This document shows, one piece after another, positions 2,759-41,841 of a stretch of DNA of 43,891 nt (the stretch's first letter is position 1; every line of letters starts with the position of its first letter). This DNA comes from Escherichia phage vB-Eco-KMB35: sequence record OR525704.1; one strand, written 5' to 3'. The notes below the pieces were generated by a model that was not told where the DNA came from, made no database searches, and saw only the letters and a list, made by a program, of their open reading frames with translations. A program made the position numbers and the translations under genes.

Positions 2759-3835
2759 ATGCTATTAACTTTAGCGCCACAGGGTTTATCTATGAGCTTA
2801 CTTACATCCCTAATCAGCCATCAGATATGGCTGCAACGCACCGCATCCGGTGAAGTGAAAGACCTCACGCCGTTCATTCAGGAGATAAGGGATGAAATCA
2901 AACGGCAGGTGCTGTTATTCGGTGACGACGGTCGCAGCACTGCGCGACTGAATAAACTGTTACGCGACCTGGAAGAAGCACTAACCGGTATTACGGGTGA
3001 CTGGCAAACAAAGCTAACAGACGACCTTAAGGAACTGGCGGCGTACGAGGCTGAGTGGAACGTAAAGACACTGACCGCCAACGTAGACGCGGAATTTGTT
3101 ACGCCTACCGCTGAGCAGGTATGGGCCGCTGCCGAGTTTCAACCATTATCATTGAGCGACAAGCCCGTTGATTTCACTAAGCTGATGGACGGCTGGGGTG
3201 AAACGGAAGTAGCACGTCTTGTAACTGGAGTTAAGATGGGCTTTGTGCAAGGTCAAACCACACGGCAGATTGTTAAGAATGTTGTTGGCGCTGGTGGACT
3301 AGCCGACATCTCAGAACGTAACGCGACTACGGTAATCCGCACCGCGCTGTCCCACGTATCCAACGAGGCCCGTAACGAGACGTACCGCCAGAACGACGAC
3401 ATCATCGAGAAATATGAGTGGGTGTCAACTTTGGACAGCCGTACCAGCACGATTTGCAGGGCCAGAGACGGAATGACGTGGGAAATCGGTAAAGGTCCGA
3501 TGCCACCAGCCCATCCTAATTGCCGAAGTACCACTGCACCGGTAATCAGTTCAGAGTTCGACTTCCTTGATAAAGGCGCAAAACGTGCGGCTAAGGGTGC
3601 GGACGGCGGTACTCAGGTAAGCGCAGACACCACCTATTACGAGTTCCTGAAACAACAACCAGCATGGTTTCAGGACCAGGCGCTCGGTCCTGTTCGCGGT
3701 AAGATTTTCCGTAACAGCGGTATATCGCCGGAAGAGTTTCGCGTAATATCTGTAGATGGTTTCGGGAATCCGCTCACGCTTAAGCAGATGGCGGAACTCG
3801 ATAAACGTGTTGCTGATTATCTGAAAGGGGAATAA
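2759..3835 (+). CDS. Head morphogenesis protein (MuF / SPP1 gp7-like minor head protein)
   Basis: 358-aa ORF after portal; position and size typical of MuF-like proteins. Confidence 0.6.
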   Translation: MLLTLAPQGLSMSLLTSLISHQIWLQRTASGEVKDLTPFIQEIRDEIKRQVLLFGDDGRSTARLNKLLRDLEEALTGITGDWQTKLTDDLKELAAYEAEWNVKTLTANVDAEFVTPTAEQVWAAAEFQPLSLSDKPVDFTKLMDGWGETEVARLVTGVKMGFVQGQTTRQIVKNVVGAGGLADISERNATTVIRTALSHVSNEARNETYRQNDDIIEKYEWVSTLDSRTSTICRARDGMTWEIGKGPMPPAHPNCRSTTAPVISSEFDFLDKGAKRAAKGADGGTQVSADTTYYEFLKQQPAWFQDQALGPVRGKIFRNSGISPEEFRVISVDGFGNPLTLKQMAELDKRVADYLKGE

Positions 3836-4296
3836 TGATGGGCTTTTTCAAAGTAACTGACGTACCGTCTCGTCGCGTAGTCCAGTACGCCCGCGTGTCT
3901 GGCTCTGGCGAGAACGTGGTATTTATTGAGGACGAAAGTGTACTCGGTACACCGGTAGATGATATGCCGTTTGCAGATAAAACCGGTATTGCGTTGCCCG
4001 CCGCCGGTATGCTTTATGAAATTCCGTATCTGGCGGACGCTGGCGACGTGTATTTCTCTGCGCAACCGCAGGACGCTGAACTGGCGGGCGGCAGCGCAAC
4101 CATCACTGTCGAGGTTAAGGCAGGCAAAGCGCCGTATTCTCTGACCTGGTACAAAGACGGTAAGGAAGTGGTGAATGCGCCTGAGGAGGCTCTGTCTCTG
4201 ACGGTTAATGCGGTCGGCGAATACTTCGTTAAAGTTACTGATGCCGATGGAGTAGAGGCGGTAAGCAAAGCGGCGAAGGTTACTAAGCCAGAATGA
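3835..4296 (+). CDS. Ig-like domain protein (possible head decoration or minor structural protein)
   Basis: 153 aa; motif TWYKDGKEV typical of bacterial Ig-like domains; start overlaps previous stop (TAATGATG). Confidence 0.5.
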   Translation: MMGFFKVTDVPSRRVVQYARVSGSGENVVFIEDESVLGTPVDDMPFADKTGIALPAAGMLYEIPYLADAGDVYFSAQPQDAELAGGSATITVEVKAGKAPYSLTWYKDGKEVVNAPEEALSLTVNAVGEYFVKVTDADGVEAVSKAAKVTKPE

Positions 4297-4553: not shown

Positions 4554-4585
4554 TGAATAGTACCCTATTATATTGGGGTGTGCAA
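4554..4585 (-). promoter_or_regulatory. Promoter element family A (TTGCAC-N17-TACTAT), copy 1
   Basis: Minus-strand sense ttgcacaccccaatataatagggtactattca; 32 nt identical to 13678..13709; directly upstream of gene 4326..4529. Confidence 0.6.
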
Positions 4586-7607: not shown

Positions 7608-7958
7608 ATGGTTGATGTAATCAAACGTCGTATTACTGGTGTTTCTGATGATTCTCCTGCCGATGGTCAGGTTGAAATCGATATGGCGAATATCTCGCCC
7701 GCATCTTTTTCTACCGCACTTGCCGCTACCACTACCAAGTCTACGGGGCAGACGATGACTCTTACCGTAGCCGTAACTGGCGGTCTGGCCCCGTACACAT
7801 ACCAGTGGTACAAAGATAACAACGCTATCCCAGGCGCTACCGCCGCCACCTACGAGAAAACTTCGCTCGCTACTACCGATTCCGGTACGTATAAAGTGGT
7901 TGTCCACGATGTATATGGTAATATTATCTCCAGCAGCACCGTAGCAACTGTATCTTAA
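7608..7958 (+). CDS. Ig-like domain protein (possible capsid decoration)
   Basis: 116 aa; motif YTYQWYKDNNAIPGATAATYEKTS resembles bacterial Ig-like domains. Confidence 0.5.
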   Translation: MVDVIKRRITGVSDDSPADGQVEIDMANISPASFSTALAATTTKSTGQTMTLTVAVTGGLAPYTYQWYKDNNAIPGATAATYEKTSLATTDSGTYKVVVHDVYGNIISSSTVATVS

Positions 7959-13677: not shown

Positions 13678-13709
13678 TGAATAGTACCCTATTATATTGG
13701 GGTGTGCAA
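13678..13709 (-). promoter_or_regulatory. Promoter element family A, copy 2 (identical to 4554..4585)
   Basis: 32-nt exact repeat; TTGCAC-N17-TACTAT in minus-strand sense, upstream of 13652 start. Confidence 0.6.
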
Positions 13710-36202: not shown

Positions 36203-36493
36203 TTACCGTTTAGCCAACCCTTCCAGCAAATTTTTATACTCTTCAAAATATTCCTCGACCAAATCATCGCCGAAATAGAAGTCGATATACTCGAGATTAT
36301 CTCTTACGTTAAGCGATGCCGACATGGTGCTTAGTTGGCGTAAGCTAATTAGCTTCATTTCTGTTTCTACGCAGAAAGGCCGGTAGGTATCAAGATGGCA
36401 AGAGATATTGAAGCATAAAGCGAACTCTCCGGCCACGGAGTGAACCATATACACTTCGTTTTCTGCTTTATTGTGGAAAATTACGCCTTTCAT
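36203..36493 (-). CDS. Hypothetical protein (96 aa)
   Basis: ORF in replication operon, overlaps upstream gene stop. Confidence 0.45.
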   Translation of the reverse strand: MKGVIFHNKAENEVYMVHSVAGEFALCFNISCHLDTYRPFCVETEMKLISLRQLSTMSASLNVRDNLEYIDFYFGDDLVEEYFEEYKNLLEGLAKR

Positions 36494-36672
36494 TTCACGT
36501 TCTCCTTAATCCATGCTTCGACTTTATTACGGTCAAATGTTCCCGGTAAACGGCGGCCCATAACCTTAATACAGCAGTCAGGGAATTTGCCGCTGCGCAA
36601 CCAGTTATTAATGGTCTGACGTGTCACCCCGATACGCTCGGCTACCTCATTCTGTGTCATGTAATGTTGCAT
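36490..36672 (-). CDS. AlpA/excisionase-like HTH DNA-binding protein
   Basis: 60 aa from ATG 36672 (RBS AGGGGA); MTQNEVAERIGVTRQTINNWLRSGKFP matches AlpA-type HTH pattern. Confidence 0.6.
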   Translation of the reverse strand: MQHYMTQNEVAERIGVTRQTINNWLRSGKFPDCCIKVMGRRLPGTFDRNKVEAWIKENVK

Positions 36673-36703
36673 TTTTATATCCCCTGTTTGTTTAGTGAAA
36701 CCG

Positions 36704-36732
36704 AGTATAGGATAGCGGGAATGTAAAAGCAA
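36704..36732 (-). promoter_or_regulatory. Minus-strand promoter TTGCTT-N17-TATACT for the leftward early operon
   Basis: Hexamers (read on minus strand) with 17-nt spacer about 30 nt upstream of AlpA-like gene. Confidence 0.45.
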
Positions 36733-36769
36733 CCAATCCCTGCAATATTTAATCTTTACAAAAAAGTTA

Positions 36770-36799
36770 TTGAAAGTTCTTGACACATGTTTGTATAAT
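36770..36799 (+). promoter_or_regulatory. Plus-strand promoter TTGAAA-N18-TATAAT
   Basis: Consensus -10, good -35, TG adjacent to -10; divergent from the minus promoter. Confidence 0.5.
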
Positions 36800-36805
36800 G
36801 GTTTT

Positions 36806-37026
36806 GGGACTTGTATATATTACGGAGTTGACGAACCCTCCCCGAGGGATTCGTCAACCCCTCCCAGACAGCTGAGATGCTTGCCTTGTGGTTTAAGGAT
36901 AAGTGTATCTAAATCTCATTTAAAGAAGTAACCCGCTGAAATATCTACTGTTTCTTAATGTGCCGTAGATTCGCAACCGTAAAAATGTAACGATTATTGG
37001 GCAGGCTTAGGGCCTGCCCTTTAGTT
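36806..37026 (+). ncRNA. Candidate small non-coding RNA (promoter to terminator, no ORF)
   Basis: About 220 nt between promoter 36770..36799 and terminator 36999..37026; 13-bp imperfect hairpin 36828..36857; longest ORFs 10-11 codons. Confidence 0.35.
36999..37026 (+). terminator. Intrinsic terminator gggcaggc-ttagg-gcctgccc then tttagtt
   Basis: Perfect 8-bp GC stem with T-rich tail. Confidence 0.6.
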
Positions 37027-37091
37027 ACCAAGTAATAAGAATAAAGGCACAACAGTTTCGAAAGAATCACAACGGCAACGTAACTATTCTC

Positions 37092-37123
37092 TTGCACACC
37101 CCAACATAATAGGATACTATTCA
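37092..37123 (+). promoter_or_regulatory. Promoter element family A (TTGCAC-N17-TACTAT), copy 3, rightward early promoter
   Basis: 30/32 identity to copies at 4554 and 13678 in opposite orientation; 30 nt upstream of ORF 37155. Confidence 0.6.
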
Positions 37124-37154
37124 CTTATCGAAACGAGACAGAGGAGTGAGGGTT

Positions 37155-37346
37155 ATGTTTAAGAAGGGTCAGTTGGTTATAACTAAACGCGGAGGGCAAT
37201 ATGTATTAGTGTTGCAGGACGAGAGCGAGTATGACGAGGATAATCTGGTTGACGTATGGGGTCTGGTAAGAAAGAAAACTGGGTTCGCCTCACGCGATAA
37301 TTTAGAACTCATCGGCAACAATTTTAAATTCAAAGGGGCGAAGTGA
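37155..37346 (+). CDS. Hypothetical small protein (63 aa)
   Basis: ATG with GAGGAG RBS. Confidence 0.5.
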   Translation: MFKKGQLVITKRGGQYVLVLQDESEYDEDNLVDVWGLVRKKTGFASRDNLELIGNNFKFKGAK

Positions 37347-37582
37347 TGCAAATCATAATTACGGATAACACAGTTGCCTACGAAAAAGGTGGCGACAATA
37401 CTCTGGAAAGAATAGGCGTAAATATAGGTGACGTTTTTGATGTGCTTGGTACTGTATCAGGCGGTTGGTGGATTAAGGTTGGACGCAACAAAGTGCCAGT
37501 AACTAAGGCCGAAGCGGAAATATACACAACGGCATCGAATCATGATGCTCGTGCCAACGACTCTGAGGGAGGTTGCCGTTAA
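37346..37582 (+). CDS. Hypothetical small protein (78 aa), paralog of next gene
   Basis: Start overlaps upstream stop; shares I-ITD...GV-GD-F-V pattern with 37582..37773. Confidence 0.5.
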   Translation: MQIIITDNTVAYEKGGDNTLERIGVNIGDVFDVLGTVSGGWWIKVGRNKVPVTKAEAEIYTTASNHDARANDSEGGCR

Positions 37583-37773
37583 TGAGAATTCGTATAACTG
37601 ATGTTGATTATGTGGACCCGCGCGATGGTGACGATTTGTCGCTTAGTTACTGGGGAGTTTCGGTAGGTGATGAGTTTGAGGTTTCCCTTGCTGGTTCCGA
37701 TATGTTCATTATCGAATGTGACGCCGGATATGTGGTTGTGCACTCCTGTGAGTGTGAGGTTCTGGAGGACTAA
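37582..37773 (+). CDS. Hypothetical small protein (63 aa), paralog of previous gene
   Basis: TAATG overlap; RBS GAGGGAGG. Confidence 0.5.
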   Translation: MRIRITDVDYVDPRDGDDLSLSYWGVSVGDEFEVSLAGSDMFIIECDAGYVVVHSCECEVLED

Positions 37774-37776
37774 GTT

Positions 37777-37920
37777 ATGAGAGGAGCATTTGAACGGTGG
37801 GCCGTAGTCGAGGGTCTGCCGGTTAACAAGGGTTCGAAGAAAGAGTACCTGAACGTTAAGACGCGTCTCGCGTGGCGGGCGTGGAAAGCTGGTGTGCAAA
37901 CGGTGGTGAATACGAGGTGA
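37777..37920 (+). CDS. Hypothetical small protein (47 aa)
   Basis: ORF below track cutoff filling the gap between neighbours. Confidence 0.35.
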   Translation: MRGAFERWAVVEGLPVNKGSKKEYLNVKTRLAWRAWKAGVQTVVNTR

Positions 37921-37923
37921 GAT

Positions 37924-38112
37924 ATGAGCGAGTGGATTAAGTGTAGCGAGCGGATGCCAGAAGAGCTTGAGGATGTACTGGTTACTGATGGTAGGTCCGT
38001 AGAAGTTATGTACCTCAGATTCGGCCTCTGGTACGTAACATCCCCGGATTCTGCTATTTGTGGGGATGAGGTTACACACTGGATGCCGTTACCAGAACCG
38101 CCGGAAGTGTGA
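37924..38112 (+). CDS. DUF551-like small phage protein (from memory)
   Basis: 62 aa; MSEWIKCSERMPE...HWMPLPEPP pattern. Confidence 0.5.
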   Translation: MSEWIKCSERMPEELEDVLVTDGRSVEVMYLRFGLWYVTSPDSAICGDEVTHWMPLPEPPEV

Positions 38113-38259
38113 TGTTCAATAGTTTGGGATTTTACTGTGTGACTTACGCTGCTACACAGCAGCGTATCATTTTTCTCATTTTTGTTCTATTTCACCAAAC
38201 GCAACAATCGAAGCGACTATTGCAGGAGACGCAACAATACAAACACCAATAAAATTTAC

Positions 38260-38291
38260 TTGCACACTAATATAGAGTAGGCTACTATTCA
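38260..38291 (+). promoter_or_regulatory. Promoter element family A variant (TTGCAC-N17-TACTAT), copy 4
   Basis: Same hexamers and spacing; TACTATTCA core; 28 nt upstream of ORF 38320. Confidence 0.5.
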
Positions 38292-38319
38292 TTTACACAA
38301 ACGAGAGGAGAGACAGAAT

Positions 38320-38469
38320 ATGGTTACTTTGATGATTATGGAATTCGAAAACAGCGCCGCAACTTATCGCGAGATGACTATGGCGCAGGCGTACCGCCTG
38401 GCCTCGAACGGCAACTTCTACAAGGCTCAAATCATCAATGAGTTCGGGGTAATTGACTATGAATTTTAG
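38320..38469 (+). CDS. Hypothetical small protein (49 aa)
   Basis: ORF below track cutoff, preceded by conserved leader aaacgagaggagagacaga. Confidence 0.4.
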   Translation: MVTLMIMEFENSAATYREMTMAQAYRLASNGNFYKAQIINEFGVIDYEF

Positions 38470-38731
38470 AAGCTACACCGTGACCGTTGATTTTGAGGGG
38501 CTGGAGTTGCCCCTCCCTAACAACTACAGGTATATAACTCGTGACCGTTTCGGGTTTATTCAGGGGTGGCGGAACAAACCTACAGACACTGAGTTCGGGA
38601 TGTCTGGCGGCGAAGAGTTGCCGATCACTTTCGGGCATCAGAGTAGTCACGAAGAGCTTAAAACGGTGATTCGTAAGTATCGCCGCCGCGGTAACACGGG
38701 GCTTATAGCAATAACAGGCGCTGTTGAATAA
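38459..38731 (+). CDS. Hypothetical protein (90 aa)
   Basis: ATG overlapping upstream gene end. Confidence 0.45.
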   Translation: MNFRSYTVTVDFEGLELPLPNNYRYITRDRFGFIQGWRNKPTDTEFGMSGGEELPITFGHQSSHEELKTVIRKYRRRGNTGLIAITGAVE

Positions 38732-38748
38732 ACGAGAGGAGAGACAGA

Positions 38749-39174
38749 GTGAACACTAAAAACGAAGTATTCGAGTACCTGATTGACCAACTACGGCAGC
38801 AGGTGAACAACAGCCCGTACAAGCAACAGTGCGAAGACCTGGCGCACGAGGTGTTGTCACTCAAGAATCAGTTACGTGATGCTTCGGCGCAGATTAAGGA
38901 GTTGCATCTGGCTCTGGCCCAAGCTACGGGTGACGTGGAGGCGTATAAACTTATCCGCAAAGGTGGGTACGTTTCCGCAGGCCAGCGCTACGTGGTTGGC
39001 GAACATGCGCCCGGGCCAACGGTAAATTGTCGGTGCACACAGACGCCTGTACCGCCGGAGCAATCTGGTTGCCGTAAGGAAGATACGCAGGAGTGCCGCC
39101 ACGACTTTGAATACATATACCCTGAAAGCGGGGTGCACCGTCATTGTATTAAATGTGGATGGATAACCGAATGA
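38749..39174 (+). CDS. Hypothetical protein with C-terminal Cys-rich zinc-finger-like region (141 aa)
   Basis: GTG start after the same 19-nt leader as 38320; CRC...C...C...H..CIKC cluster. Confidence 0.5.
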   Translation: MNTKNEVFEYLIDQLRQQVNNSPYKQQCEDLAHEVLSLKNQLRDASAQIKELHLALAQATGDVEAYKLIRKGGYVSAGQRYVVGEHAPGPTVNCRCTQTPVPPEQSGCRKEDTQECRHDFEYIYPESGVHRHCIKCGWITE

Positions 39175-39374
39175 CCAGCATCCTCTTTATCTGGGTACTG
39201 TCCGCAGGCCAGATGCAACTCGCGGCATCAGAAACGTTTTACTCGATGGAGGCGTGCCAGTCAGCGGCACGCGCCGCTGAGAACGCGCACTTTCTGTTTC
39301 AGGGTGACAAGCCCAACGATTCAGAGGTACGCGCTATCTGCTCACCTAAGCGACTTGGAAAACAGGAGAAATAA
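39171..39374 (+). CDS. Small protein with signal-peptide-like N-terminus (67 aa)
   Basis: ATGA overlap with upstream gene; N-terminus MTSILFIWVLSAGQMQLAAS. Confidence 0.45.
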   Translation: MTSILFIWVLSAGQMQLAASETFYSMEACQSAARAAENAHFLFQGDKPNDSEVRAICSPKRLGKQEK

Positions 39375-39375
39375 C

Positions 39376-39579
39376 ATGGTACAGAGATATTCTAAGTATG
39401 GGTCCGACAACCATTTCATTGACCGCCACGGGAAGTGGGTTAAGTTTGAGGACTACCAGAATCTTGACCTAAAGCTGTTGGAAGTTGAAGCCGAGTTACA
39501 GAAATACAAGGACCAGTTCCCGGATTACGTCGAGTGCGCGAACTGTGGGTCAGTTACACATGTGGGAGGGGTGGAGTGA
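39376..39579 (+). CDS. Hypothetical small protein (67 aa), paralog of next gene
   Basis: RBS AGGAGAA; shares MV-RY...G-WV--EDY--L--KL-E with 39579..39758. Confidence 0.5.
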   Translation: MVQRYSKYGSDNHFIDRHGKWVKFEDYQNLDLKLLEVEAELQKYKDQFPDYVECANCGSVTHVGGVE

Positions 39580-39758
39580 TGGTGCATAGATACGAAAACG
39601 ACCACGGCGATATGTTTCAGGCCGCGGGAGGGCGCTGGGTCCTATACGAAGACTACGCGGAGCTGGCGCGTAAACTGCGCGAGCTTGCTAAGCAGGTAGT
39701 AAACAGTCCGTGCGACTGGAAGACGGATGAATTAGCGCGCGAGATTCTGGACCTATGA
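39579..39758 (+). CDS. Hypothetical small protein (59 aa), paralog of previous gene
   Basis: ATG overlapping upstream stop (TGATG). Confidence 0.45.
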   Translation: MVHRYENDHGDMFQAAGGRWVLYEDYAELARKLRELAKQVVNSPCDWKTDELAREILDL

Positions 39759-40048
39759 GCCTTGCAACTGACATCCTGAAACGGAGCGGCCTTGCGCCGC
39801 TGTCGCCGAGAGCGAACACACGAATATACAAGCGCCGCCGTAATGCGCTGTACCCTGAGATTCAGGCCAGACGCAAAGCAGTCCGCGCCTGCGGATTCCA
39901 GAACGGAAAGGCCGTGAATCTCGGTGAGTTTAAAACAAAGGAACGTGCGGCTATCGCTAATCGGTTATTTAATTACTGGAAATCGCTGGGTTATGAAGAT
40001 ATTCCGACGAAACCACAGAGACGACAATACATCTGGCGTCATAAATAA
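39755..40048 (+). CDS. Small basic protein, possible AP2-like DNA-binding domain
   Basis: 97 aa; NGKAVNLGEFKTKERAAIANRLF resembles AP2/HNH-associated DNA-binding motif (weak). Confidence 0.35.
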   Translation: MSLATDILKRSGLAPLSPRANTRIYKRRRNALYPEIQARRKAVRACGFQNGKAVNLGEFKTKERAAIANRLFNYWKSLGYEDIPTKPQRRQYIWRHK

Positions 40049-40078
40049 ACCGTTATTAAGATAATTCCTAACCGTGCT

Positions 40079-40118
40079 ATCCTCCAGTTACTGCATACTT
40101 AATACGCACCTGGAGGAT
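40079..40118 (+). promoter_or_regulatory. RNA hairpin sequestering the holin Shine-Dalgarno (atcctccag ... ctggaggat)
   Basis: 9-bp perfect inverted repeat; 3' arm contains GGAGGA located 6 nt before TTG start at 40124. Confidence 0.4.
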
Positions 40119-40123
40119 TCATC

Positions 40124-40432
40124 TTGGATAAATTTACTGAAACAGTGACAGGCTGGCTTCTCGCTGCCGCACTAGCCGGAGGGGTAATCGGACTAAGGCA
40201 ACATAAGTCCGCTATTTCCGGCCCTATCGACGGCTTCTGCTTTATTGCAACTGGCTTCACTTGCGCCGTATTTGGCGCACCTCTCGCAGCTCAATGGTTT
40301 GGAATCACGGGCGACCGTGAAATCGCAGGCCTGGGCTTCATTATCGCTATTCTCTGGATGCCTATCTATTCCCGTCTGTCCGGTATCGTCGCCGGAGAAT
40401 ACATCGCACGTCGAGGAGGCCCGGATGAATGA
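40124..40432 (+). CDS. Holin (three predicted TM segments), TTG start
   Basis: 102 aa with three hydrophobic helices; immediately upstream of second TM protein and endolysin. Confidence 0.6.
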   Translation: MDKFTETVTGWLLAAALAGGVIGLRQHKSAISGPIDGFCFIATGFTCAVFGAPLAAQWFGITGDREIAGLGFIIAILWMPIYSRLSGIVAGEYIARRGGPDE

Positions 40433-40697
40433 GTTATTCTGGTTCTGCGGTATGCTGGCAATCGGAGGCACATCGCTGTTTAATGTGTATCATCCCAGCG
40501 TTGACGACGGGCTATTTGGCCGGGTGCTCTATATCCTGACTGCTATTGTCTGCGCCGCAGGATGTATCCACCTGTTACAGGGCAGCATGTCTCCGACGCT
40601 GCCTGAGACATTAATCACATTAGTTGCGCTGCGCCAGATTCGTCAGGCGTGGCTGTCATACGGAGGACATAAGCGTGTCTCGAAATATTTCAGATAA
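40425..40697 (+). CDS. Second holin-like / antiholin membrane protein (two TM segments)
   Basis: 90 aa from ATG 40425 overlapping holin stop (ATGAATGA); two hydrophobic helices. Confidence 0.5.
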   Translation: MNELFWFCGMLAIGGTSLFNVYHPSVDDGLFGRVLYILTAIVCAAGCIHLLQGSMSPTLPETLITLVALRQIRQAWLSYGGHKRVSKYFR

Positions 40698-41163
40698 TGG
40701 ATTGCATTTCACCGCTGCGTTCGAGGGATTCCGCGGAACTGCATACCGCGCTACGCCGAACGAGAAGTACCTGACTATCGGGTACGGGCACTATGGGCCG
40801 GACGTAACCCCGGGTAAGACCATCACACCGGGGCAAGGCCTCCTGTTACTGAATCGCGATATGGCTAAGGCCGTAGCTGCGGTTGATGTGGCGGCACACC
40901 ATTCGCTGACACAGGCACAGTTCGACGCTGTGTGCGACCTGGTCTATAACGCCGGTGCTGGTGTGATTGCAGCTGCTACCGGCACAGGAAAGGCGCTGCG
41001 TTCTGGTGACATCGCGACACTGCGGGCTAAACTGGCGCTGTTTATCAACCAGAACGGCAAACCGTTACTTGGTCTGCGCCGCCGTACTGCCGGGCGTCTT
41101 GCACTGTTTGACGGCAAGCCGTGGCAGGAGGCGGAGGCCATTGGGCGCGCGGTGAAAGGTTGA
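40675..41163 (+). CDS. Endolysin, T4 E-like lysozyme (glycoside hydrolase family 24-like)
   Basis: GTG 40675 with GGAGGA RBS; FEGFRGTAYRATPNEKYLTIGYGH matches T4 lysozyme EG-R--Y-D--G--TIG-GH catalytic region. Confidence 0.8.
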   Translation: MSRNISDNGLHFTAAFEGFRGTAYRATPNEKYLTIGYGHYGPDVTPGKTITPGQGLLLLNRDMAKAVAAVDVAAHHSLTQAQFDAVCDLVYNAGAGVIAAATGTGKALRSGDIATLRAKLALFINQNGKPLLGLRRRTAGRLALFDGKPWQEAEAIGRAVKG

Positions 41164-41229
41164 CACCTGAGACTAATCCGACGATACTTAAATCACCCCC
41201 TGTTCCATACCTCTGCTCTCCAGTTTTAT

Positions 41230-41260
41230 CCCGGCCCTGACCCAGCCGGGATTTTTTTTA
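41230..41260 (+). terminator. Intrinsic terminator cccggc-cctgaccca-gccggg followed by T8
   Basis: GC stem plus long T-run after endolysin. Confidence 0.7.
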
Positions 41261-41281
41261 TCTATTTTCTGCAATGACTAG

Positions 41282-41310
41282 TTGACTATTACCTACGACC
41301 CTATTATATT
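41282..41310 (+). promoter_or_regulatory. Promoter TTGACT-N17-TATATT
   Basis: Good -35 and -10 hexamers with 17-nt spacer directly after terminator. Confidence 0.5.
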
Positions 41311-41343
41311 TACTCCATCGACAACGAGAACGGAGTAGAGAAG

Positions 41344-41647
41344 ATGAGTAACGTACAGACAATCGCAATAACCGAGGAACTTGAAGCCAAATGTATCGCA
41401 TGGACTATGGGTAATGACCAGGTTGCTATGCGTAAATTTCCAATGAAAATCACAGACATCGAAGCGTAATGACCAGGTTGCTATGCGTAAATTTCCAATG
41501 AAAATCACAGACATCGAAGCATTCAAAGATGCACAACTGATGGCACGTATTGCCGTTGGCAACCTGAGCAACAATATCCCGGCGGACGCGTTCTGGTTCG
41601 CTGCTATGCAGACACTGAAAGCAGCTTATGCAGGAGAGAAGAAATGA
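41344..41647 (+). pseudogene. Small gene split by a 55-bp tandem duplication (N-fragment 41344..41469, C-fragment restart 41483..41647)
   Basis: Removing one 55-bp copy restores a single 82-codon ORF; with both copies the frame shifts and stops at TAA 41467. Confidence 0.55.
41411..41520 (+). repeat. Perfect tandem direct repeat, 2 x 55 bp
   Basis: 41411..41465 identical to 41466..41520; flanking bases differ. Confidence 0.95.
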
Positions 41648-41841
41648 AAGTTAAAGCCGCTAAAATTCTCTGGTTAGCCGCCCTTGACTATGTCACAGAG
41701 GGTAAAGTGTATGATGTATACAACCCGACAGCTACTGGTTTCGGTTATATAGACTCCGACGACGACTGCCATATTTTCATAGACTTTGGTAACGATGACG
41801 GTGATGGTTTCCACGGCGTTAAATGGGAGGTTGTAGAATGA
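41644..41841 (+). CDS. Hypothetical small acidic protein (65 aa)
   Basis: ATG overlapping upstream stop. Confidence 0.5.
   Translation: MKVKAAKILWLAALDYVTEGKVYDVYNPTATGFGYIDSDDDCHIFIDFGNDDGDGFHGVKWEVVE

Follow-up and report, generated by a model that had tools for sequence, protein, structure and literature searches.

Two tandem pairs of small genes in the phage genome OR525704.1, which we call A1/A2 and B1/B2, are, as their alignments indicate, genuine and old duplicates, and the source of their variation among related phages appears to be the replacement of whole cassettes, in family B by combinatorial exchange of N- and C-modules, and not point divergence. The window analysed is the whole sequence of 43,891 nt, which is a complete Kagunavirus (Guernseyvirinae) genome with Bas72 as its nearest relative. 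What is seen here is phage mosaicism of a known and ordinary kind, in an unusually clean form. The explanation as a whole, which adds to old paralogy and cassette exchange the proposal that the encoded proteins are small binders, seems to us rather probable.

Two pairs of old paralogs

The small genes form two operons on the + strand, flanked by divergent replication genes and by the lysis cassette, and each operon starts with an identical sigma70-like motif, TTGCAC-N17-TACTAT. The first copy, P1 (37092..37120, + strand), lies upstream of the operon consisting of g1, A1, A2, g4 and a DUF551 gene, and the second, P2 (38260..38288, + strand), lies upstream of the B1/B2 operon, which continues towards the lysis genes. 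The 29-nt motif is present in four copies in the genome, with 0.14 expected by chance. P1 sits in a conserved island of 95-97% identity in about 22 of 25 related loci, and the annotation of fBC-Eco01 has a PHIRE ‘phage promoter’ at the equivalent position. Between the two operons, 3′ of the DUF551 gene, there is a terminator-like hairpin followed by a T-run (38145..38166, + strand), within an island that is 97-99% identical across about 22 loci. No terminator was found between the B operon and the lysis genes, into which it continues, so that early timing of the B operon is only conjectural. We infer early expression of the A and B genes only from their position and the two sigma70-like promoter motifs; in a published study of a Kagunavirus transcriptome we found no timing for the individual ORFs. 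Each of the four genes is preceded by a Shine-Dalgarno-like sequence and overlaps an adjacent gene at the stop and start codons, and the annotation of Bas72 has the same gene boundaries.

The first-pass annotation of this DNA had proposed that A1 (37346..37582) and A2 (37582..37773), and likewise B1 (39376..39579) and B2 (39579..39758), are tandem paralogs. Both proposals hold, in that all four are real ORFs and both alignments lie far above those of shuffled sequences, with z of about 8 and none of 5000 shuffles as good. A1 and A2 are 35% identical over 60 residues in BLASTP (E=3e-6), with a Smith-Waterman score of 58 (shuffles 22.9 +/- 4.2; z=8.3; 0/5000 as good). B1 and B2 are 43% identical over 37 residues (E=3e-6), with a score of 62 (shuffles 23.3 +/- 4.9; z=8.0; 0/5000), and their homology is confined to the N-terminal 37 or so residues. 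The motifs by which the pairs had been recognized are invariant columns of these alignments. The acidic C-termini ascribed to both A proteins, however, are found only in A2 (net charge -13, pI 4.05, ending in ECEVLED), whereas the tail of A1 is an unrelated boundary sequence. The two A proteins share a match to phrog_5684, and the two B proteins one to phrog_29624; A-versus-B cross pairs were no more similar than chance in the shuffle test. When 356 six-frame ORFs were compared all against all without prior selection, five pairs exceeded the threshold, among them the A and B pairs; of the other three, one consists of Ig-like structural proteins and two are by-products of a single 55-nt DNA duplication.

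Two explanations that dispense with protein ancestry have to be considered. The ORFs are short and match no Pfam family above its threshold, as might be expected if they were non-coding or their similarity were due to chance. This explanation, to which we assign practically no weight, is already refuted by the z values of about 8 against shuffles, by homologues that number in the hundreds, by dN/dS values far below 1, and by the ribosome-binding sites and translational coupling at these ORFs. Alternatively, the resemblance could reflect nucleic-acid signals conserved at the starts and borders of genes, since gene boundaries are conserved here at the DNA level and MVQRY and MRIRITD lie directly at start codons. 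This is very improbable, and already disfavoured, as the similarity extends over 37-60 residues with conservative substitutions at a nucleotide identity of only 49-57%, the GV-GD-F-V and G-WV-YEDY motifs are internal, and the model of the common A core, an SH3-like barrel, has high confidence.

Protein paralogy thus remains our reading of both pairs, but a recent local origin does not agree with the divergence of the paralogs, which share only 35-43% of their amino acids and about 49-57% of their nucleotides and are accordingly old. Moreover, a tail-less A1-like gene is also found in a different phage genus, which argues that the A duplication is old and not a recent local event.

Cassette slots and exchangeable modules

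Among related phages, the small-gene stretch consists of short boundary segments, 94-99% identical and present in nearly every genome, that alternate with gene interiors replaced wholesale. The gene g1 (37155..37346, + strand; phrog_12538), the upstream neighbour of A1, has invariant ends (MFKKGQLV ... LIGNNFKFK) and a hypervariable interior, of which there are at least seven variants, all of the same length. Although g1 has a weak SH3_2 match, we rejected it as a further SH3-like member of family A, since hhalign against the family gave a probability of 0.3%.

The body of A1 (residues 1-60; 37346..37525, + strand), which is the SH3-like beta-barrel paralogous to A2, occupies a polymorphic cassette slot. 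A1 is present in only 4 of 25 related loci, and the same slot elsewhere holds one of at least five other, unrelated inserts, or is empty; A1 is an optional cassette, one of at least six alternatives for its slot. Next to this body lies a 52-nt boundary element (37528..37579, + strand), which encodes the non-homologous tail of A1, TASNHDARANDSEGGCR, and carries the ribosome-binding site of A2, GAGGGAGG. Almost every related locus has the element, at 93-98% nucleotide identity, regardless of the gene upstream of it. Homology between A1 and A2 stops at about residue 60, and the last 18 residues of A1 lie outside the SH3-like domain and are predicted to be disordered (pLDDT ~58-61). A1 is an old copy whose disordered tail was inherited from the 3′ boundary sequence of the slot. 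We also considered the 52-nt element as a structured RNA and rejected this idea, since folding gave no signal (z=-0.6), an Rfam search of the element gave no match, and its small stems are not preserved in the variants of relatives.

A2 (+ strand), a very acidic SH3-like protein of 63 residues, is more widespread than A1; it occurs in at least four divergent allele types among relatives, with extremely variable interiors. Family A is predicted, in a high-confidence model, to form a stand-alone, small, five-stranded SH3-like beta-barrel of about 60 residues. No Pfam gathering threshold was reached by the family (SH3_2 scored 13.3 bits versus the required 21.8, and FeoA was unlisted at E<=1), and the best match in a PDB search with the family A profile, at E 0.015, was not significant. 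An ORF of vB_Ec-G8 (L040:2097-2351) reached an hhalign probability of only 18% against A2. Several long repeat proteins that match the A profile (P0231, P0234, P0245 and others) were discarded, as their matches are spurious and consist of multiple short stretches resembling GD-F-V.

In pair B, exchange extends to parts of genes. Members of family B share a plan of MVQRY, a hypervariable loop of 8-30 residues, GxWVxYEDY and a helix, followed by one of many unrelated C-modules. The N-module of B1 (39376..39465, + strand) is of the type common to B2 and consists of MVQRY, the variable loop SKYGSDNHFIDRH and GKWVKFEDY; its C-module, C1, AELQKYKDQFPDYVECANCGSVTHVGGVE (39490..39576, + strand), contains a single CxxC knuckle. 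The 3′ end of C1 holds the ribosome-binding site and the start overlap of B2, and C1 has 95-97% nucleotide identity in approximately 21-22 of 25 loci. The N-module of B2 (39579..39668, + strand) consists of MVHRY, the variable loop ENDHGDMFQAAG and GRWVLYEDY, and is followed by C2 (39669..39758, + strand, stop codon included), which ends in RKLRELAKQVVNSPCDWKTDELAREILDL, is unrelated to C1 and has phrog_37174 as its best PHROG.

Family B comprises at least 22 loop types, eight of which are paired with more than one C-module, and at least ten C-modules; the loop type of B2, for example, is paired with C1, C2, C3 and other C-modules in relatives. In-frame fusions of B1 and B2 also occur among relatives (P0118, L021), and a clean swap of the B2 N-module, at 39582-39700, is the sole difference between Bas72 and OR525704.1 within the small-gene stretch. 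These combinations indicate that N- and C-modules move from one tandem slot to the other as well as from phage to phage. A search for a template repeat, as in a DGR-like system, revealed no second copy of the B loops within 36400-41700. Confidence in the structural model of B1, in which a helix follows short strands, is low (pLDDT 64.6), so that the picture of a hairpin plus coiled coil is tentative, and a PDB search with the family B profile gave nothing significant.

Family A has 107 homologous proteins and family B has 403, and nearly all of them come from contigs of 42-46 kb. There were about 16 true family A representatives among 1.84 billion proteins, and the best 120 matches of the N-module profile to 5.8 billion proteins all belong to Guernseyvirinae. 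A scan of 185,579 bacterial and archaeal genomes with the C1 pattern gave one match, on a 6.2 kb contig of a metagenome-assembled genome. Both families appear to be almost confined to Guernseyvirinae; the N-module is also found on larger proteins, in lambdoid-type elements and on a 328-kb viral contig.

We propose that new alleles would arise during co-infection, through homologous recombination at the YEDY-LE joint and within the conserved boundaries, and not by point mutation. The conservation of the boundaries could, however, be due to dual coding or translational coupling instead of selection for recombination.

Selection and possible function

Diversifying selection on these genes, which the first-pass annotation had also invoked, is not what we observed. 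In pairwise, gene-wide Nei-Gojobori comparisons, restricted to alignable alleles, dN/dS was 0.10-0.45 for A1, 0.16-0.40 for A2, 0.24-0.29 for B1 and 0.18 for B2, so that all measurable values lie at 0.10-0.45 and none exceeds 1. Typical values for comparison genes were ~0.07 (g10), ~0.09 (g13), ~0.05 (holin) and ~0.03 (endolysin). Purifying selection acts on the alignable alleles of all four genes, with constraint relaxed 3-5 times relative to lysis and neighbouring genes, and the four genes therefore encode working proteins. It could still be argued that these are recent local duplications, in which positive diversifying selection drives divergence as part of an arms race, given that the homology and the tandem arrangement are real, that dN/dS is 3-5 times above that of lysis genes, and that the B loops and A2 interiors are extremely variable. 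We regard this as unlikely. The paralogs share only 35-43% amino-acid and about 50% nucleotide identity, another phage genus carries an A1-like gene, every measurable dN/dS is below 0.5, and the variants are discrete, pre-existing cassettes that are common to both slots and to different genomes.

With regard to function, the suggested role of the A and B genes in host takeover or anti-defence is a plausible hypothesis. A literature search found no functional, expression or interaction reports for any member of either family. In the BASEL phenotyping, Kagunavirus phages were highly sensitive to restriction-modification and variably sensitive to Old, which gives no hint that they strongly counteract the defence systems assayed; in a paper on the Kagunavirus EcoPhCCP1, machine learning singled out three small CDSs, not specified further, as Acr candidates. 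In the explanation that we prefer, old paralogs varied by cassette exchange, the small A and B proteins would most likely be non-enzymatic and bind host or defence proteins, and would be expressed from promoters of the host RNA polymerase. Family A would bind through the surface of its SH3-like barrel and family B would act as a coiled-coil dimer presenting the variable loop, and the polymorphism of both could reflect polymorphic targets.

A more specific possibility is that B1 and its C1-bearing relatives are Lar-like restriction alleviation proteins, in which a zinc-ribbon C-terminus would act against type I restriction and the N-module would serve dimerisation or targeting. Weak matches to the Pfam family PF14354 (Lar_restr_allev) occur in 26 of 50 family members, with a best, sub-threshold E of 0.029. 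Where a second CxxC extends C1, as in some relatives, the match improves to E 0.005 (17.5 bits, profile positions 14-56 of 58), and there are weak matches to phrog_3592, ‘Lar-like restriction alleviation protein’ (E ~6e-4 to 8e-4). However, all PF14354 scores are far below the cut-off (13-17 bits versus 28.6, with 13.1 bits for B1), B1 has one CxxC (CANC) versus the four cysteines of the ribbon and aligns over only 20 residues, and the second CxxC is present only in fused relatives (L005, P0186, P0285). Furthermore, B2 has neither a C1-type module nor a CxxC, and Kagunavirus phages are reported to be highly sensitive to restriction-modification. The Lar-like signal in B1 may be taken as only a lead, and the function itself as quite unlikely.

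It is also conceivable, although we would give it slightly less credence still, that family B is a natural combinatorial library, in which a two-strand clasp would display a loop for target recognition, attached to a dimerising helix and to interchangeable effector or inhibitor C-modules. If so, a lytic phage could use its tandem slots to hold two specificities at once, and to recombine them, in response to immunity proteins that are polymorphic among hosts, and the occurrence of the N-module on larger proteins would mark a widespread, undescribed recognition domain.

Four ‘hypothetical proteins’ thus become two defined families, whose architecture is predicted and whose mode of evolution is clear, and the locus offers an unusually tidy sub-gene example of cassette exchange at conserved boundaries in strictly lytic phages. 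The Kagunavirus group, which is now in the standard BASEL collection (Bas70-76), is of interest for phage engineering, and the near-isogenic pair of OR525704.1 and Bas72, differing here in the B2 N-module only, is a ready-made experiment. Should defence proteins prove to be bound by the B loop or the A barrel, the catalogue of alleles would map specificity directly.

Relation to known systems

In PHROGs, the genes fall into families 5684 and 10916 (A) and 29624 and 37174 (B), all of ‘unknown function’; paralogs and modules are spread over several families, and neither the modular architecture nor the slot structure is represented. Compared with SH3 domains and FeoA-type SH3-like proteins, family A is stand-alone and phage-encoded, with a very acidic member in A2, and has neither a proline-motif nor an iron-transport context. 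The locus resembles anti-defence and accessory islands in its small, acidic, fast-turnover ORFans, which lie behind host-type promoters and are polymorphic in content among close relatives, but differs in that no A or B member matches a known anti-defence protein.

Lar, which is reportedly a restriction-alleviation protein of the Rac prophage (PF14354), is similar in being a small phage-borne protein with a CxxCG knuckle, and its profile repeatedly gives weak matches to C1. However, C1 remains below threshold and corresponds to only half a zinc ribbon, and the N-terminal clasp and helix of family B are absent from Lar.

There is also a parallel in pattern with lambdoid phages, which are said to exchange mosaic segments at conserved boundaries, as in the modular theory of phage evolution. 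In both cases, variable genes lie between short, highly conserved junctions that are common to otherwise different genomes. Here, however, the pattern occurs in a strictly lytic siphovirus group and at sub-gene resolution, within the B genes, g1 and A2, and the conserved junctions are themselves translated into parts of proteins.

Two tandem paralog pairs in a block of small genes

Megablast with positions 36900-40100 of the window matched 376 phage records, almost all of them Escherichia or Salmonella Guernseyvirinae, and the closest, Escherichia phage NicoleGrasset_Bas72 (hereafter Bas72; 43,746 bp), aligns to 87% of the query at 96.5% identity. From this we identify the 43,891-bp window as a complete genome of the Kagunavirus type. 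Phages of this type are small siphoviruses that are strictly lytic and depend on O-antigen or capsule. The genus was placed in the new family Sarkviridae by a 2026 paper. The genes analysed here, A1 (37346-37582, 78 aa), A2 (37582-37773, 63 aa), B1 (39376-39579, 67 aa) and B2 (39579-39758, 59 aa), lie on the + strand within a block of small genes, which is flanked by divergent HTH and helicase-primase genes on the - strand and by a holin/endolysin cassette. Each has a Shine-Dalgarno-like sequence and overlaps the stop codon of its neighbour, and the same gene boundaries are annotated in Bas72.

The first-pass annotation had proposed that these genes form two tandem paralog pairs, and the alignments bear this out. 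A1 and A2 are 35% identical over 60 residues (BLASTP E=3e-6; Smith-Waterman z=8.3), B1 and B2 are 43% identical over 37 residues (E=3e-6; z=8.0), and for each pair 0 of 5000 shuffles aligned as well. Furthermore, A1 and A2 both match phrog_5684, and B1 and B2 both match phrog_29624. Smith-Waterman scores between A and B proteins were at chance relative to shuffles in all four cross comparisons. When the 356 six-frame ORFs of the window with at least 35 aa were compared all against all by BLASTP, five pairs emerged: A, B, an Ig-like structural pair, and two by-products of one 55-nt DNA duplication. A and B are two old paralog pairs, all of whose members fall in existing PHROGs of unknown function; a literature search found no paper addressing A1, A2, B1 or B2.

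The Ig-like proteins (3835-4296 and 7608-7958; Hoc-like decoration or tail Ig domain; E=3e-5) are paralogs too and form the third such pair of the genome. The 55-nt sequence is perfectly duplicated in tandem at 41411-41520 (two copies, 100% identical), and the resulting frameshift splits a small + strand gene into two ORFs (41344-41469 and 41483-41647). Only one copy is present in Bas72; the duplication is either very recent or an assembly artefact.

Family A and the A1 slot

Of 5.8 billion proteins searched with a profile of A1 and A2, 107 matched, and contigs of 42-46 kb carry nearly all of them. HMMER without a word index, run on 1.84 billion representatives, added only a handful of more distant members (58-69 aa); long repeat proteins also listed in that search are motif artefacts. 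No Pfam family scored above threshold with family A (SH3_2 reached 13.3 bits against a cut-off of 21.8), and a PDB profile search gave nothing significant. For the A1 ortholog in phage fFiEco02, an HHpred match to SH3/FeoA-like proteins was already recorded by the depositors in a GenBank note. Family A is a narrow family, and its members are predicted to be stand-alone SH3-like mini-barrels. The gene directly 5' of A1, g1 (37155-37346), is not detectable as a relative (hhalign probability 0.3%). A tail-less A1-like gene, which ends directly after the predicted barrel, is found in vB_Ec-G8, a Veterinaerplatzvirus-like siphovirus of a different genus (locus L040, 2801-2983). A1 and A2 thus diverged long ago, and family A has moved between phage genera. 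A possible A2-like ORF (L040, 2097-2351) lies two genes upstream, with an hhalign probability of only 18%.

The gap between g1 and A2 is filled in related loci by A1 or by a single unrelated insert, of which there are at least five kinds (most start MMEEL); where it is empty, g1 runs in frame into the tail. Every version finishes with the same 52 nt, AACGGCATCGAATCATGATGCTCGTGCCGACGACTCTGAGGGAGGTTGCCGT (37528-37579), at 93-98% identity in nearly all related loci, whatever gene lies upstream. This boundary element is translated as TASNHDARADDSEGGCR, the tail of whichever gene precedes it, and includes GAGGGAGG, the ribosome-binding site of the next gene; it gave no RNA folding signal (z=-0.6) and no Rfam match. 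Since the same 52 nt follow unrelated genes, the A1 tail is boundary sequence inherited from the slot and lies outside the duplicated domain. Thus, of the acidic C-termini previously ascribed to pair A, the claim stands for A2, which is strongly acidic (net -13), but not as a feature common to the pair, as the last 18 residues of A1 have no homology to A2.

In some relatives (loci L003, 1942-2148, and L032, 4116-4223), a small hydrophobic ORF, MMLVPTTLREVAVNNYPFILIISAVYVVHALWGLV, begins within the boundary element in the +1 frame and fills the insert ahead of A2. The window retains a remnant (~37541-37600, +1 frame) cut to ~19 codons, and frameshift and fusion products of this ORF are present in databases (proteins P0085, P0088 and P0238).

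Modular architecture of family B

A profile of B1 and B2 found 403 proteins on Guernseyvirinae-sized contigs. The modular build of the family accounts for their lengths of 48-117 aa: MVQRY is followed by 8-30 hypervariable residues, then by G-x-[WYF]-V-x-Y-E-D-Y-x-x-L, in some members by a coiled-coil insert (at least three types exist), and finally by a C-terminal module. Clustering of 153 members gave at least 22 loop types, 8 of which are paired with at least two different C-modules. A search with the N-module alone (MVQRY, loop and GxWVxYEDY) found at least 10 unrelated C-termini attached to the loop of the window's B2 (ENDHGDMFQ...) and the LLQGGLIGPHD loop. In 25 related loci, B genes occur singly or as a tandem pair; the first nearly always carries module C1 (AELQKYKDQFPDYVECANCGSVTHVEGVE), and the second carries C2, C3 or another module; in-frame B1-B2 fusions also occur (protein P0118, locus L021). 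Bas72 and the window have identical A1, A2 and B1, and their B2 genes differ only by a ~120-nt replacement encoding the N-module; one breakpoint lies at the B1/B2 junction and the other where the C2 module starts. This is a recent exchange of the B2 N-module. An AlphaFold model of low confidence (pLDDT 64.6) places a helix at residues 24-47, after short strands at the N-terminus.

The N-module, as M..[QK]RY ... G.[WF]V.YEDY..LE, also starts proteins of 143-164 aa with phrog_492-like C-termini, which adjoin ParB-like and Ead/Ea22-like genes on lambdoid-type contigs (L025, 3992-4486; L026, 3992-4423), and it forms the start of a 59-aa ORF on a viral contig of 328 kb (L022, 3995-4174). We regard it as very unlikely that the N-module serves in general as a scaffold displaying a hypervariable recognition loop, with combinatorial use against polymorphic host immunity.

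The C1 module could be Lar-like, as in restriction-alleviation proteins: in 26 of 50 members it matches Pfam Lar_restr_allev in the same way, below threshold (best E 0.029), relatives with a second CxxC extension reach E 0.005, and a PHROG annotated as Lar-like is also weakly matched. However, B1 has only one CxxC and scores less than half of the curated cut-off, B2 lacks C1, and the BASEL study reported that Kagunavirus-type phages are highly sensitive to restriction-modification systems, with variable sensitivity to Old. We consider the Lar-like reading improbable. A Cys-rich, zinc-ribbon-like module at the C-terminus of g9 (39060-39171), another small gene of the block, recurs in some relatives as an in-frame extension of the B1 C-terminus (locus L005, 4001-4303; proteins P0186 and P0285); modules thus move between different genes of the operon.

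Conserved islands, cassettes and selection

Mapping the 25 related loci on 36400-41300 showed that the region is organised as conserved islands and cassettes. The islands (37060-37170, 37300-37345, 37525-37590, 37750-37900, 38080-38310, 38740-38940, 39160-39390, 39490-39580 and 39730 onward) are present in ~20-24 of the 25 loci at ~90-99% identity. The replaced or barely alignable segments are the A1 body (4/25 loci), the A2 interior (7/25, ~70% identity), genes g7-g8 (5/25) and the B1 and B2 interiors (11-14/25, ~57-69%). An exact 19-nt direct repeat, AAACGAGAGGAGAGACAGA, which includes a ribosome-binding site, brackets the g7-g8 cassette (38299-38317 and 38730-38748), and fits gain or loss via recombination between the repeats. 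Like the paralog pairs, g1 has conserved ends (MFKKGQLV and LIGNNFKFK, both invariant) and a replaced interior, with at least seven mutually unalignable versions of the same length in relatives.

Pairwise Nei-Gojobori dN/dS between the window and alignable alleles was 0.10-0.45 for A1, 0.16-0.40 for A2, 0.24-0.29 for B1 and 0.18 for B2; by these ratios, the four are genuine coding genes, and purifying selection acts on them. Typical values over many pairwise comparisons were ~0.07 for g10, ~0.09 for g13, ~0.05 for the holin and ~0.03 for the endolysin, so this selection is weaker than on the lysis genes. The diversifying selection first suggested for the pairs is not supported: among alignable alleles, none of the four genes as a whole shows positive selection. 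The conspicuous diversity is instead the exchange of discrete cassettes already present elsewhere in the gene pool.

The genome has four copies of TTGCAC-N17-TACTAT, where chance would give 0.14. Two copies of this promoter-like 29-nt motif (TTGCACAC...TACTAT) are on the - strand (4557-4585 and 13681-13709), and two on the + strand head the A operon (37092-37120) and the B operon (38260-38288). The spacer is nearly the same throughout in three of the four, suggesting either promoters of a class specific to the phage or binding sites for a regulator. A terminator-like hairpin (38145-38166) separates the two operons; the stretch between B2/g13 and the holins yielded no terminator.

Taken together, the analysis shows two old pairs, an SH3-like family A, a modular family B, a region organised in islands and cassettes, a recently exchanged B2 N-module and purifying selection on the four genes. 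On this basis, the conserved boundary segments would serve as recombination sites during co-infection, host RNA polymerase would transcribe the genes from the predicted promoters, and the A and B proteins may be small and non-enzymatic and bind proteins of the host or its defences. We moderately favour this picture as a whole, and nearly all of its uncertainty lies in the functional part. In evolutionary terms, the region is a case of the modular mosaicism known classically from lambdoid phages, here at sub-gene resolution and in a lytic phage group.
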